Of a stretch of 32,562 nt of DNA, positions 26,848 through 31,790 are shown one piece after another. Each line of letters begins with the position of its first letter. Positions within the stretch are counted from its first letter, which is position 1. The DNA lies in IMG/VR virus record IMGVR_UViG_3300030376_001553, positions 1 through 32,562 of that record; one strand, 5' to 3'. The notes beneath the pieces are model-generated. The model was not told the origin of the DNA, made no database searches, and saw nothing but the letters and a program-made list of their open reading frames with translations. This DNA comes from a virus. Its lineage: Duplodnaviria; Caudoviricetes. The translations under genes were made by a program, and so were the position numbers.

Positions 26848-28426
26848 TTGAGTGTTCCTCTGGTACTTCCAGCATTCTGCCTGTGGCCTCATCGTACTTG
26901 ACTTGGCCGCATACCCCTAGCCAACCACTGAATCTGTTTTTTAACACCCTGACTTTACATCCACTATCGGCTACTTGTTGGTCTCTCTCTAAAGAAAGGA
27001 CAATATCACTAAGACAAGCAATACTTGAACTACCTCTAAGGCTACTAATCCTAGTCTGTTCTCCATCCTCATATCCCTTATTACCTTGTGGTCTTCTTAA
27101 ATGACTGACCAATATCATCCCACAACCAGTCTCTTCTACAAAAGATCTAAGCTGAGTTACTGTGTAGTCAATCGCTCTGCGTTCGTCACTGCTTTGTTCC
27201 AGACCTGAGACGAGTATCGATAGGTGATCGAAAATAACCCAATCACAATTGAGGCTGATAACGCAGTGCCTAATACGATTAAGTAACACGGTAGGATCAA
27301 TAGAGCCAAAAGAGTCGTACAAGTAGACTCTATTGTTCCCAAGGGTTTGGTCGAACGCTGTTGAGATTTCTTCATCGGTAAGTTCTCCTTTATCAATGTG
27401 GATAGGACGGTTGAGGTGGATGCCAACGAAACGTCTAGCAGTCCTTAAGTTATTCTCTTCTAAATTAATAGAAGCAATTGTTTGATTCTGTTTTACGGCA
27501 AGACTATAAGCAATTTCATTTACAAAAGTTGACTTGCCTGTGCCAGTTGCCCCAGTGATAGTACAAAGCTCCCCCTTACGTAGCCCCAGAAGCCTCTTGT
27601 CTAGGCACTCATAGCCATAACTAACACTGTCTACCTTTGGGTCTTCAAGGATTGCTTCCTTTAGTTTATTAGCATTAACAATACCATCAGGTTCATACTC
27701 CTTAGCATTGAACACCATGTCTGTAATAGCTCTAGTATCTCTAGCTTGTAAAGCCTCACTAGCATCCTTATAACCCTCTATAAAGCCTATCTTTCCCTTT
27801 CTGGGGGGTAAGAGTTGAATGTCTCTAGCTGCTGCCTTCTGTCCTACCTCATCATTGTCATAACAGAGTATGACTGTCTCAAAGGTTAGTAACCAAGTCA
27901 GTTGTTCCTTAATAGTTTTCTGTCCAGACTCAGCACCATTAGGTAGAGAAACACAGGGCCATCCATCTCTTGTTTGCATATAAGATAGACAATCCTTCTC
28001 CCCTTCAAAAACTACTAAGAGTTTACTGTTACCTCCCCATAGTTCCTGACCTAAGAATCTATTATCTATATTCTTACCAATCTGTAAAAACACTTTGTTA
28101 GCTTTCCTTACCTTATAACCAGAAAGAACTCTGTCCTTACTGTAGATAGGCCAGAAGTAAGCATCTTCACCCCCATGCTTTCCTTTTATATAACCTGCTT
28201 TCTTACAAGTAGCAGCTTTAAGGTTACGTCTAGGGATGTCTACATATTCACCTATAACAGGTTGAATATCTAATGGATTTGTCGAGGTCATTGGAAAAGG
28301 GTTAGTAATGTTTGAATAAACTTGATAATTACAATTAGGAGTAAAACACTTTTGGCTGCCGTCTTCCCAAACGGCTAAGTTATTCTTACTCCCACATTTA
28401 GGGCAAGGTAAATGATTTACACTCAT
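26822..28426 (-). CDS. Primase/helicase (T7 gp4-like)
   Basis: Zn finger CPKC..CFTPNC, TOPRIM EGEKD and DND, Walker A GATGTGKST, DHLS, LVSHLRR, LRGS and KNR. Confidence 0.97.
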   Translation of the reverse strand: MSVNHLPCPKCGSKNNLAVWEDGSQKCFTPNCNYQVYSNITNPFPMTSTNPLDIQPVIGEYVDIPRRNLKAATCKKAGYIKGKHGGEDAYFWPIYSKDRVLSGYKVRKANKVFLQIGKNIDNRFLGQELWGGNSKLLVVFEGEKDCLSYMQTRDGWPCVSLPNGAESGQKTIKEQLTWLLTFETVILCYDNDEVGQKAAARDIQLLPPRKGKIGFIEGYKDASEALQARDTRAITDMVFNAKEYEPDGIVNANKLKEAILEDPKVDSVSYGYECLDKRLLGLRKGELCTITGATGTGKSTFVNEIAYSLAVKQNQTIASINLEENNLRTARRFVGIHLNRPIHIDKGELTDEEISTAFDQTLGNNRVYLYDSFGSIDPTVLLNRIRHCVISLNCDWVIFDHLSILVSGLEQSSDERRAIDYTVTQLRSFVEETGCGMILVSHLRRPQGNKGYEDGEQTRISSLRGSSSIACLSDIVLSLERDQQVADSGCKVRVLKNRFSGWLGVCGQVKYDEATGRMLEVPEEHSNGYATPDF

Positions 28427-29013
28427 AAATCACTCCATTGATCGCACATGGCTTGGGCTATACCATCGTAAGTTTTACTGCGTTTCTTCCAGCGATCCTT
28501 AGATGGTCCTAGTTTGTTCTGACCACTAGGTGTTTGATTCTCCCAATATCCACATTCAGGCTTGGGTAATATTTTTGTAGGGTTTAAATGGTTTAAGCCC
28601 CTGAGCCATAAGCAAGTTCGCTTAGATTCTGGATGACCAAATTCATACGGCTGGATTATTTGGCTTGGCTTACCAAGTTTTGTTTTAGTAGAAATAACAC
28701 TGACAGGATTCTCAATACACATCTTTGGTATTGGTGCATCCCATAGAGCAGTGACAAAATCTAAAGCTCTTTGTTGCCTACCATCTGCAATCTTCTTAGC
28801 AAAATGAGCAGCACCTGAGACAGCTATATCCGTACAGGGTGGGTGTAAAATCGCCAAATCCCAGTCGTTATCTATGATGTCGAAGATGTTTCCTTGGTAA
28901 TGTGGACCTTCTACTTCAGTAGGGAGTAGGTCACAACTCCAAGCATCATGTCCTGCTGCAATGAACTTGTTTCTGATAACGCCAGAATGTTCGCAGCCAA
29001 TTAAAACTCTCAT
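28423..29013 (-). CDS. Compact DNA cytosine-C5 methyltransferase-like protein, 196 aa
   Basis: Start MRVLIGCEHSG at 29013 with GGAGG upstream; motifs SCD, HPPC (catalytic PC), ENP, QPYEFGH, K.T.LW and RSKT. Confidence 0.75.
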   Translation of the reverse strand: MRVLIGCEHSGVIRNKFIAAGHDAWSCDLLPTEVEGPHYQGNIFDIIDNDWDLAILHPPCTDIAVSGAAHFAKKIADGRQQRALDFVTALWDAPIPKMCIENPVSVISTKTKLGKPSQIIQPYEFGHPESKRTCLWLRGLNHLNPTKILPKPECGYWENQTPSGQNKLGPSKDRWKKRSKTYDGIAQAMCDQWSDL

Positions 29014-29050
29014 TAAAAAACCTCCAAGGTGGGGATTGATCCTTGGAGGC
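29014..29050 (-). terminator. Terminator-like hairpin that includes the MTase ribosome-binding site
   Basis: Minus strand GCCTCCAAGG-ATCAATCCCCA-CCTTGGAGGT then TTTTTA and the ATG. Confidence 0.75.
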
Positions 29051-29078
29051 TTGGTAACCCTTTCACTTACCAACTGAA

Positions 29079-30175: not shown

Positions 30176-30264
30176 CACTTTAAACAGCCTTATACTGCCT
30201 TATAATTAAACTATAAATGTATTTATAACCGTACTCTTAAGCAATATTAGAAGTTTAAACAGTA

Positions 30265-30294: not shown

Positions 30295-30654
30295 ATGAAG
30301 TTCGCAATAGCTCTAGCTGCCCTGCTAGGAGTAGGAACAGCTCCAGCCCTTGCTGGTACTTACGTCAACGTTGAGTCCAATGCATCTTACGTTGGGAATG
30401 ATTATAAATCTAGAACTACGGACGTTCACATAGGATTTGAAGGAGGTGGTCCACTTGCTACTTATTACATCCAAGGCGGCCCTGCTTTAGTTAATGGCGA
30501 TGCCGTTGATGGTTCAACAGAGTTCTCTGGTAAGACAGGGATCAGCATAGCTGCTACTGAAAGACTAGATGTCTATGGCGAAGTATCTCTACTAACTGCT
30601 GAAGATACAGACAACAGCTACGGTACTAAAATAGGAGGAAAGTTTAAGTTCTAA
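30295..30654 (+). CDS. Small secreted outer-membrane beta-barrel-like protein of picocyanobacterial/cyanophage type
   Basis: Signal peptide ending in ALA; alternating beta-strands (YVNVE, DVHIGFEG, YYIQGGP, LDVYGEVS); C-terminal KFKF resembling a BAM signal. Confidence 0.75.
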   Translation: MKFAIALAALLGVGTAPALAGTYVNVESNASYVGNDYKSRTTDVHIGFEGGGPLATYYIQGGPALVNGDAVDGSTEFSGKTGISIAATERLDVYGEVSLLTAEDTDNSYGTKIGGKFKF

Positions 30655-30659
30655 CTTCA

Positions 30660-30857
30660 ATGACAATCACAACCGAATACGGTAAACAAAACATCTTCGC
30701 AAACGAACCTGCTATTGAAGTTATGGACAATCACAACCACGAAGGAGATCCAATGCACATTGCAGAGGAACTCAATGGCCGCCTAGCTATGATGGGTTTC
30801 GTAGCTGCTCTAGGTGCCTATATAACAACTGGACAACTTATACCAAACATTTGGTAG
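30660..30857 (+). CDS. hli: High-light-inducible protein
   Basis: AEELNGRLAMMGF chlorophyll-binding motif, TGQLIPNIW tail and a phage-type N-terminus TTEYGKQNIFA.EP. Confidence 0.97.
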   Translation: MTITTEYGKQNIFANEPAIEVMDNHNHEGDPMHIAEELNGRLAMMGFVAALGAYITTGQLIPNIW

Positions 30858-30873
30858 AATAAATCTAATTGAG

Positions 30874-30882
30874 TGTTAGTCT
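30874..30882 (+). promoter_or_regulatory. Candidate extended -10 promoter for the riboswitch transcript
   Basis: TG-T-TAGTCT would place the transcription start at ~30889-30890, the 5' edge of the riboswitch. Confidence 0.5.
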
Positions 30883-30887
30883 TCGCT

Positions 30888-30941
30888 TCCGTTCATCCTT
30901 TGTGGACGCATGACACCTAATCATGGAACGGGGATTAGGTT
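30888..30941 (+). ncRNA. Downstream-peptide / glutamine-II riboswitch
   Basis: CGTTC (30890-94) pairs with GAACG (30926-30); small hairpin TCC-TTTGT-GGA; pseudoknot ACCTAATC (30915-22) with GATTAGGT (30933-40); followed by an RBS and a YRG peptide. Confidence 0.9.
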
Positions 30942-30955
30942 TTAGGAGACTGACC

Positions 30956-31057
30956 ATGAGTCCAGTTGAACTACAAGCTCGTATCAAAGAACGAGTAAAG
31001 GCTAAGAAACAAGTAAAACTTACATACAGAGGTTTAACTTACATAGTCAAACGCTAA
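30956..31057 (+). CDS. 33-aa DUF4278-like (YRG-motif) peptide
   Basis: MSPVELQARIKERVKAKKQVKLTYRGLTYIVKR; RBS AGGAG at 30944-48; LTYRGxxY motif. Confidence 0.88.
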   Translation: MSPVELQARIKERVKAKKQVKLTYRGLTYIVKR

Positions 31058-31061
31058 GATC

Positions 31062-31087
31062 AGGGGAGCCAAACGGCTCCTCTTTTT
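31062..31087 (+). terminator. Intrinsic terminator after the DUF4278-like peptide
   Basis: AGGGGAGCC-AAAC-GGCTCCTCT then TTTTATTT. Confidence 0.9.
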
Positions 31088-31097
31088 ATTTGGAGAA

Positions 31098-31256
31098 ATG
31101 CAAGAGTTTATCACTCTAGATACCGAACATCTAACGGACACCCACAGCTACGCTAGAGAGCGTTACAAGGACGCTATAGGCGATAGGGATAAAGACTACT
31201 GGGAAGGCTATTTGGACGCTCTGGACTCCGTATATCAGGCTCAGAAGACGACCTAA
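31098..31256 (+). CDS. Unannotated 52-aa acidic protein
   Basis: GGAG then ATG; MQEFITLDTEHLTDTHSYARERYKDAIGDRDKDYWEGYLDALDSVYQAQKTT; the stop overlaps the convergent ORF. Confidence 0.65.
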   Translation: MQEFITLDTEHLTDTHSYARERYKDAIGDRDKDYWEGYLDALDSVYQAQKTT

Positions 31257-31408
31257 AGGTTCTTACGGTGCTTCTCGTCTTGAGCATACTTCCATTGCTC
31301 TATTAATCTTGAGGTTGCCTCATTCCTTTTCTGTTCACCCCAGTCCTCTATCTCTGCTAACTTATTTAGTCTCTTTAAGTGGTCTAAAAGCCCATCAGCT
31401 TTAGTCAT
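31253..31408 (-). CDS. Hypothetical 51-aa protein
   Basis: Probable start MTKADG at 31408, overlapping the stop of the upstream 129-aa ORF. Confidence 0.6.
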   Translation of the reverse strand: MTKADGLLDHLKRLNKLAEIEDWGEQKRNEATSRLIEQWKYAQDEKHRKNL

Positions 31409-31790
31409 TGGTATCTTGACCTTCGTATAAGGACACAAAATCTCCATTAGGGTCTAAATAGAAACAGTTCGTATCTCTTATTTTGACATAATCTTCCTGC
31501 AAGAGTTCTATAAAAGCACCTACTAAGGCTTGACAGGTACTAGCCTCTAGTACTGACTTATGTAAGTCTGTCTGTGCCTCTACTACTCCCTCCATAAGCT
31601 CTGTATTATCTAAACCCCATAGGATCTCATGGTCCTCATCTGCATCTGCTTCTAGGTATTCAATAGCCTTATGTGACTTCCTTTCTAAAACTTTCATCCT
31701 TGCTAAAAGTAAGGGTAGGTAGTCTCTAGCCACTCTCTTAAGTGGTCCATAGAACTTATCTTTTGCTGTTGCTTTTGCCATAAGTGCCAT
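31401..31790 (-). CDS. Hypothetical helical protein, 129 aa
   Basis: Open frame directly downstream of the operator cluster; no motif recognised. Confidence 0.7.
   Translation of the reverse strand: MALMAKATAKDKFYGPLKRVARDYLPLLLARMKVLERKSHKAIEYLEADADEDHEILWGLDNTELMEGVVEAQTDLHKSVLEASTCQALVGAFIELLQEDYVKIRDTNCFYLDPNGDFVSLYEGQDTND

Follow-up and report, generated by a model that had tools for sequence, protein, structure and literature searches.

This locus raises a question of control: where does the transcript of a phage-borne, putatively glutamine-binding RNA start, which strand may hide the ribosome-binding site (RBS) of the tiny gene behind it, and does glutamine turn that gene on or off? 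We addressed it by computational analysis of a 32.6-kb fragment of a T7-like cyanophage, estimated to be ~75% complete (hereafter the window, the whole analyzed stretch of 32,562 nucleotides).

The inverted cassette and its phage

The phage genes of the window lie on the minus strand. By sequence, Prochlorococcus phage P-RSP2 is the nearest isolate, with 68% identity in the DNA polymerase as against ~40% for other isolates. Between ssb and the early genes stands a plus-strand cassette with an OMP-like gene, an hli gene and the riboswitch-peptide unit; psbA is absent from the window. The position and orientation of the OMP-like gene are retained in most syntenic relatives. The two genes ahead of the unit are:

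30295..30654, plus strand: cyanophage outer-membrane-protein-like (OMP-like) gene, first in the inverted cassette (Pfam PF24653, 129 bits)
30660..30857, plus strand: hli gene, with the likely promoter box overlapping its final codon and stop (phrog_178, E = 1.5e-23)

This cassette (30295-31057; loci L124-L147) runs opposite to the phage genes and adjoins ssb in P-RSP2-like phages, and psbA-bearing T7-like cyanophages have the same parts in the sense orientation, ahead of the capsid gene. Elsewhere in the window, a DNA methyltransferase-like gene (28423-29073, minus strand; phrog_757) lies between the endonuclease and primase genes, at a place where P-RSP2 has no gene.

A Glutamine-II aptamer ahead of a short peptide gene

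The elements of the unit itself, other than its promoter and leader, are the following:

30887..30940, plus strand: Glutamine-II aptamer (RF01704, 52.6 bits), with the geometry of PMC6698751 in the four pairings below
30890-94 with 30926-30, plus strand: aptamer pseudoknot PK, 5 bp
30896-98 with 30904-06, plus strand: aptamer P1
30909-30931, plus strand: aptamer long-range pair C19:G41
30915-22 with 30933-40, plus strand: aptamer P2, 8 bp
30944..30954, plus strand: Shine-Dalgarno (SD) site (30944-48) and spacer, from sequence and folds; 30945-54 forms the 3' strand of the leader helix P0 described below
30956..31057, plus strand: 33-aa basic peptide, net charge +8, with one YRGxxY motif, DUF4278-like (PF14105, 15.2 bits; synonymous-rich changes)
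31062..31091, plus strand: intrinsic-terminator-like hairpin (stem 31062-83) and U tract (fold z -3.26, 0 of 200 shuffles)

The sole Rfam match in the window is to Glutamine-II (RF01704), over model positions 1-60 of 60 (E = 3.5e-10), and its score stands above the gathering threshold (cut-off 33 bits). This bears out the first-pass annotation, made from the letters alone, which had placed the RNA in the Downstream-peptide (Glutamine-II) family that accompanies DUF4278 peptides in picocyanobacteria. Every pair of P1, P2, PK and C19:G41 can form in the window. The ligand-contact bases named from the crystal structure (PMC6698751), namely C1, G2, G18, C19, C39, G40 and A33:G42, are all present (30890, 30891, 30908, 30909, 30929, 30930 and 30923:30932, respectively). 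Across 18 syntenic sequences, 96.4% of the cells of the aptamer pairs are paired, four pairs showing two-sided changes. Judged by its sequence, the aptamer is a true member of the Glutamine-II class. The helices that had been described as an intact P1 and an 8-bp pseudoknot exist, but by the helix names of the crystal structure the 8-bp one is P2, and it is the 5-bp PK that makes up the pseudoknot; Weinberg's figure labels the helices of this class differently from PMC6698751.

Two features of the wider set of copies deserve mention here. The PK pair C5:G36 is replaced by a compensatory U5:A36 in the L127, L132 and L353 classes, and our initial search pattern missed such copies. Of 109 viral copies (L003-L122), 78 have CGTC and 14 have CGTA as the four bases before C1, unlike the host copies; possible pairing partners of this tetranucleotide are the 3' strand of P1, the SD site and the YRG codons, the last of which would contaminate the coding-region control used below.

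The aptamer stands in the 5' UTR of a short ORF, with the ATG (30956) 16 nt past the motif. The RBS AGGAG and the 33-aa ORF with LTYRGLTY are where the first-pass annotation had put them. Its remark that the peptide is absent from the ORF track was mistaken, as the mechanical ORF list contains it within a 44-aa frame that opens at an upstream ATG (30923). This ATG is unconserved: 25 of 109 copies have it in an open, matching frame, which is at chance level, and we rejected an in-frame upstream AUG at this place as a leader or as the start of a longer product.

A YRGxxY ORF lies just downstream in 105 of 105 complete viral aptamers, as opposed to 2 of 13,033 random positions; these 105 derive from 120 viral loci found by a pattern scan, after leaving out 5 without the core, 4 failing the P2 test and 6 ending too early. 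Synonymous-to-nonsynonymous codon changes against three relatives are 9:4, 7:7 and 5:1. By these comparative measures, the 33-aa ORF is a real gene. Its match to DUF4278 (PF14105) falls below the curated cut-off of 25.3 bits and covers only profile positions 40-57 of 57; on this profile score the peptide is classed as DUF4278-like and not as a DUF4278 member. In an alignment of 34 peptides, 28 match DUF4278 at E<=0.1 (best 7.3e-7), and L22, Y24, R25, G26 and Y29 are invariant across all rows, which were chosen for a YRG-type motif. Phage peptides range from 13 to 60 aa (median 18) and share YRGxxY only; since long and short forms replace each other at the locus, YRGxxY appears to be the working unit. 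Searches with the peptide returned three representatives at E<=0.001, one phage record, and Atlas leads below 0.9 with one cluster 27% DUF4278, and a search for a relative of solved structure found none.

The strong terminator that had been proposed is likewise predicted from the sequence, and its place in syntenic relatives is taken by hairpins whose sequences belong to three or more unrelated types. A small hairpin within the peptide ORF (30978-30995) scores as a minus-strand terminator-like site. In contigs from RNA runs (4 of 15 listed runs), pieces span 30669-31065, 30734-30961 and 30891-31056, and none spans 31080-31667; these contigs, which may be DNA, carry no information on strand, start or level, and we did not count them as evidence of transcription or termination. 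Directly after the U tract begins a 52-aa plus-strand ORF with its own RBS (31098-31256), whose expression would require terminator read-through. It has 68% identity in L146/L147 and is missing from L127 and L143, and Pfam and PHROG searches with it found nothing (Atlas leads below 0.9).

The probable promoter and the NtcA box

The first-pass annotation had taken 30874-82 for an extended -10 box. The pattern TGnTAnnnT is indeed present there, but in the window it is no more frequent than chance alone would give (70 matches observed versus 114 expected), and a better box lies upstream, outside the coordinates claimed for the unit:

30852..30860, plus strand: likely extended -10 box TGnTAnnnT with a predicted start at ~30867 (A); a homologous box is present in 22 of 22 syntenic loci

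We accordingly consider this box to be probably the true promoter and the earlier placement to be off. Across the 22 loci, the upstream box occurs in 10 variants, with TG, TA and the last T all kept, as against 2 variants of the downstream box; this is the expected outcome if the former is constrained by a sigma factor and the latter by pairing. Among hli genes with the window-type ending, TGGTAnnnT is found in 11 of 11 cases in which an aptamer follows, and in none of the 8 other matches, not all of which are hli genes. The predicted start is 20 nt ahead of the motif, and the Yfr6 start is likewise 20 nt upstream of the motif (PMC2864571). As P-RSP2 has no ORF longer than 129 aa between terminase and ssb, i.e. 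none that is polymerase-sized, host-type promoters are plausible, even expected, and the box at 30852-60 is likely read by the host polymerase. The unit was also said to be self-contained within 215 nt. This is not established: its start probably lies ~20 nt earlier, and transcripts from promoter-like sites ahead of the OMP gene (30179-30206) may run through OMP and hli into it.

An NtcA-type site follows the upstream box in most of these loci, exact in 17 of 22 and with one mismatch in 2; it is missing in 3, among them the window, where we looked for an NtcA box near the unit and found none. Host copies have the same order of elements, with an NtcA site in 9 of 14 parsed. An NtcA box overlapping the start region has been read as repression under nitrogen shortage (PMC6212724), and this repressing geometry in the relatives and host copies fits nitrogen-replete expression. 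The window lineage resembles the L143 type minus the NtcA box, perhaps through a 31-nt deletion between short direct repeats, though another alignment is possible. In all L124-class and L143 leaders, an 8-nt palindrome separates the NtcA box from the P0 strand.

A predicted leader helix over the ribosome-binding site

The stretch at 30874 is better read, on the predicted folds, as one strand of a helix:

30875..30884, plus strand: P0 5' strand, an anti-RBS leader spanning the formerly proposed -10 box (MFE and centroid of three 5'-extended folds)

In these folds, it pairs with 30945-54 as a 10-bp helix, P0, lying over the SD site. The comparison of the 22 syntenic loci shows that this complementarity is conserved, at the level of sequence, in the P-RSP2-like lineage of the window. 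In the 7-bp core of P0, 150 of 154 cells are paired, versus 48-83 when one strand is slid by 1-3 positions. Four positions show two or three pair types each: at -10, U-A in 4 and C-G in 18; at -7, U-G, U-A or C-G; at -6, C-G in 3, U-A in 15 and a mismatch in 4; and at -5, among six close relatives, U-A, A-U or G-C in three and no pair in three. These figures should be read as a handful of covariation events, the 22 loci comprising 18 near-identical leaders plus 4, in two main leader types. The loci were collected by ssb homology and patterns, and 12 of the 22 came via patterns containing the P0 3' strand, which selects for it; the count excludes L270, which is of the psbA type, and the leaderless L132, L134 and L138. 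Pairs were counted by an anchored script, the MAFFT alignment putting the P0 3' strand out of register in four rows.

Outside this lineage the picture differs. P0 is absent in P-RSP2 and its class and in the 11 scored host copies (14 of 22 parsed). Among 109 general viral copies, leader-RBS pairing reaches -9 kcal/mol in 13 and beats its own shuffles in 18, versus 21 for the coding-region control. We therefore rejected P0 as a class-wide platform: the own-versus-cross z of -5.8 (-3.1 without the 10 strongest) and the far-flank z of -0.3 have to be set against z -3.7 for the coding-region control. As far as these sequences go, a P0 general to the class is not supported, and it is missing in host copies and most phage copies. 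In the class containing S-TIP37, leader and RBS show another 7-bp match, one that takes in C1 (9 of 9 versus 0 of 100), within one lineage.

Glutamine, the leader helix and the sign of the switch

According to the structural study, earlier probing indicated that P1 and P2 form without glutamine, and the pseudoknot induced by the ligand (Kd 190 uM) probably competes with an RBS-covering structure that was left unnamed (PMC6698751). P0 is a concrete candidate for this partner, conserved in its lineage. In the glutamine-free RNA, a relaxed junction of P0, P2 and an extended P1 would keep the SD site hidden. With glutamine bound, the pseudoknot would pin C1 at the PK-P2 junction, some ten base steps away from the P2 end that carries P0. 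The 5-nt leader linker would then have to cross P2 beside a linker already there, and P0 would begin to fray at its inner end, where the SD site lies, such that high host glutamine would allow the peptide to be made. The composite reading, in which a Glutamine-II aptamer and a YRG gene are transcribed by the host polymerase from 30852-60 and glutamine loosens the P0 lock, strikes us as about evenly poised between right and wrong.

Its sign draws on two indirect lines, the reporter result in the host and the NtcA geometry. The Prochlorococcus MED4 copy is ON in a reporter and is the only member tested (PMC6212724). By analogy, glutamine-ON is the likeliest polarity, and would act via an anti-RBS strand other than the CCUAA segment within P2. 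The energetics are less accommodating. Nested folding with the ligand core blocked did not show P0 opening in the window (opening cost 9.8 versus 10.1 kcal/mol), and this cost is higher with the core blocked in 20 of 22 loci, in a model that excludes the pseudoknot and sterics. A Kd of 190 uM also provides little energy relative to a 10-bp helix, which counts against glutamine opening P0. The ON model would thus require either strain between PK and P0, which is plausible given the coaxial P1-PK-P2 layout, or kinetic capture by the ribosome.

An unlikely alternative invokes two starts: the box at 30874-82 would also be a promoter, yielding a short RNA without P0, and P0 would serve to silence longer or read-through RNAs. 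TGnTAnnnT is kept at the 30874 position in 22 of 22 loci, including TG/TA bases that are not paired in all of them, and copies of the P-RSP2 and L353 types are leaderless, with a -10 box whose end is 9 nt upstream of the aptamer. However, the start predicted for the box at 30874-82 falls on a pyrimidine and lies two bases closer than that of the P-RSP2 class, and the middle bases of the downstream box are frozen. It is equally unlikely that base pairing between the ligand core and the surroundings of the start codon (30903-12/30955-64 and 30891-95/30966-70) gates the short RNA itself. Such a fold is the MFE of the short RNA, and opening goes from 8.8 when free to 6.3 with the core blocked, yet this pairing is unenriched in the 109 copies (mean relief 0.66 versus 0.91 shuffled) and is about zero in most syntenic loci. 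As a general platform, the core-start codon fold was discarded, showing no excess over shuffles.

Less probable still is an inverted polarity, in which P0 is compatible with, or favored by, the glutamine-bound fold, and the peptide is made as host glutamine falls during infection (glutamine-OFF). Blocking the core raises the number of leader-RBS pairs in most loci (0.1 to 6.7 in L124; 3.5 to 6.9 in L128), as the leader has alternative partners inside the aptamer, and nine linker nucleotides can in principle span P2. But blocking any bases removes competitors, which partly builds in the effect, and the change in the window is small (11.0 to 12.4 pairs); moreover, the NtcA boxes in a repressing position in the relatives suggest nitrogen-replete expression and the sole tested member is ON (PMC6212724). 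The historical version of this proposal, whereby P-RSP2-like phages rebuilt a captured host riboswitch with a leader lock, such that glutamine frees the leader from the core, closes the lock and reverses the sign, is as improbable as the polarity that it explains.

The switch offered in the first-pass annotation, in which CCUAA (30916-20) alternates between two UUAGG copies (30935-39 and 30942-46, all in the sequence as claimed) and hides the RBS without glutamine, is largely refuted and very improbable: it sets 5 bp against the 8 bp of P2, which is reported to be preformed (PMC6698751), forcing it takes 8.4 kcal/mol in the long and 7.2 kcal/mol in the short RNA, the second UUAGG is altered in the close relatives L127, L143 and L373, and across the 109 copies the P2 5' strand matches its own initiation region no better than that of other copies (z +1.1; p<=0.05 in 1 of 109), as opposed to z -23.4 for the positive control against its own P2 3' strand. 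The annotation's glutamine-ON sign is still the most likely one, with the P0 leader as the preferred anti-RBS strand.

The target of the peptide

Host homologues of the peptide have been proposed to act on glutamine synthetase (PMC6212724; PMC6316151), and for the phage peptide an IF17-like inactivation of the host enzyme is one candidate, though a doubtful one. The gifB-like regulatory wiring, with NtcA box and glutamine riboswitch, and the basic charge are in its favor. On the other hand, DUF4278 corresponds to the N-terminal part of IF17, which is described as dispensable for inhibition, and the Prochlorococcus proteins are described as being without the needed C-terminal residues (both PMC6316151 and PMC6212724). 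Picocyanobacterial DUF4278 proteins are likewise reported to be without the IF7-like C-terminal region (PMC6212724). Of the peptide profiles, only DUF4278 matches here; the IF7-like C-terminal region, with its three conserved arginines, was compared via profile search alone. Half of the phage peptides are no longer than 18 aa, with just YRGxxY conserved, and a shutdown of nitrogen assimilation would have no obvious benefit for a lytic phage. Support for glutamine synthetase as the target is weak. We suggest that the peptide could be a host-derived nitrogen-replete signal that probably acts on an acidic protein of the host involved in nitrogen or photosynthetic control, glutamine synthetase being but one possibility.

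Distribution and comparison with known systems

The core pattern is found in ~1800 stored viral stretches (an estimate from 5 of 64 parts), about nine in ten of those sampled being true aptamers, and BLAST finds the unit in many cyanopodovirus isolates. The aptamers of P-SSP7, P-SSP10, S-TIP37 and P-RSP2 score 48.1, 51.5, 54.5 and 41.9 bits with Rfam, respectively. The gene upstream of the 109 distinct viral copies is psbA in 60 and hli in 7, as assigned by sequence motifs. Aptamer and YRG peptide are thus common in cyanophages, and often unannotated (P-SSP7, P-SSP10, P-RSP2).

The riboswitch class and its occurrence in cyanophages are already on record: the P-SSP7 copy is a row of the 2010 discovery alignment (PMC2864571, supplement file 5), and glutamine riboswitches are mentioned in T4-like cyanophages (PMC9964418; PMC9602691). 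Our search of the open-access literature found no published expression platform for the Glutamine-II class and no work on the phage peptides, and within that literature the lineage-specific leader helix and the corrected promoter, as predicted from sequence, appear to be new. Riboswitches have been called rare in phages (PMC9004378); if the aptamer-peptide units are active, many ocean cyanophages would sense host nitrogen status directly. As S-TIP37 carries the unit, and mutants of this phage have been made (PMC12695635), the peptide is open to knock-out study there.

Some neighboring features of the isolates stand apart from the unit. P-RSP2 (L351 260-483) and L132-L138 have two tiny lysine-rich ORFs of 19 and 55 aa, the second phrog_16028, between hli and the aptamer promoter. 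The P-RSP2 record repeats ~500 nt at both ends (1-500, 41745-42257), duplicating hli and the small ORFs, probably as an assembly overlap. P-SSP7 (L001 1620-1660) and S-TIP37 (L350 1690-1730) have a hairpin with a tRNA T-loop-like sequence after the peptide and before the capsid leader, for which there was no Rfam match at the gathering score.

Among the phages, the closest parallel is P-RSP2 itself, of clade R of the T7-like cyanophages, in which the same inverted locus adjoins ssb, with hli, the aptamer and an unannotated 17-aa YRG ORF; it differs in that it has an NtcA box, its -10 box stops 9 nt short of the aptamer, and the leader helix and the OMP gene are missing. P-SSP7, P-SSP10 and S-TIP37 share the aptamer and YRG peptide (17, 18 and 38 aa), but their unit follows psbA in the late-gene sense and has no P0 of the window kind, whereas that of the window is in the inverted OMP-hli cassette beside ssb.

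The host counterpart is Yfr6/PMM1846 of Prochlorococcus and Synechococcus, which shares the aptamer sequence and fold, the short basic YRG ORF, a promoter ~20 nt upstream and, in relatives, the NtcA box. Host peptides have two or more YRG motifs, whereas the window phage has one, behind an N-terminal extension. In the phage lineage of the window, ~17 extra nt between the NtcA box and the aptamer carry the anti-RBS strand, which the 11 scored host copies are without (duplexes of -2.5 to -6.5 versus -14.4). The unit of the window is phage-borne, and its sub-lineage has no NtcA box. More distantly, the Glutamine-I (glnA) riboswitch of gifB/IF17 in Synechocystis shares the ligand pocket, a proposed RBS-masking logic and DUF4278 in the IF17 N-terminus. 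However, it is built on a three-way junction rather than the pseudoknot of Glutamine-II, and IF17 has an IF7-like C-terminal inhibitory region that the 33-aa single-YRG peptide appears to do without.
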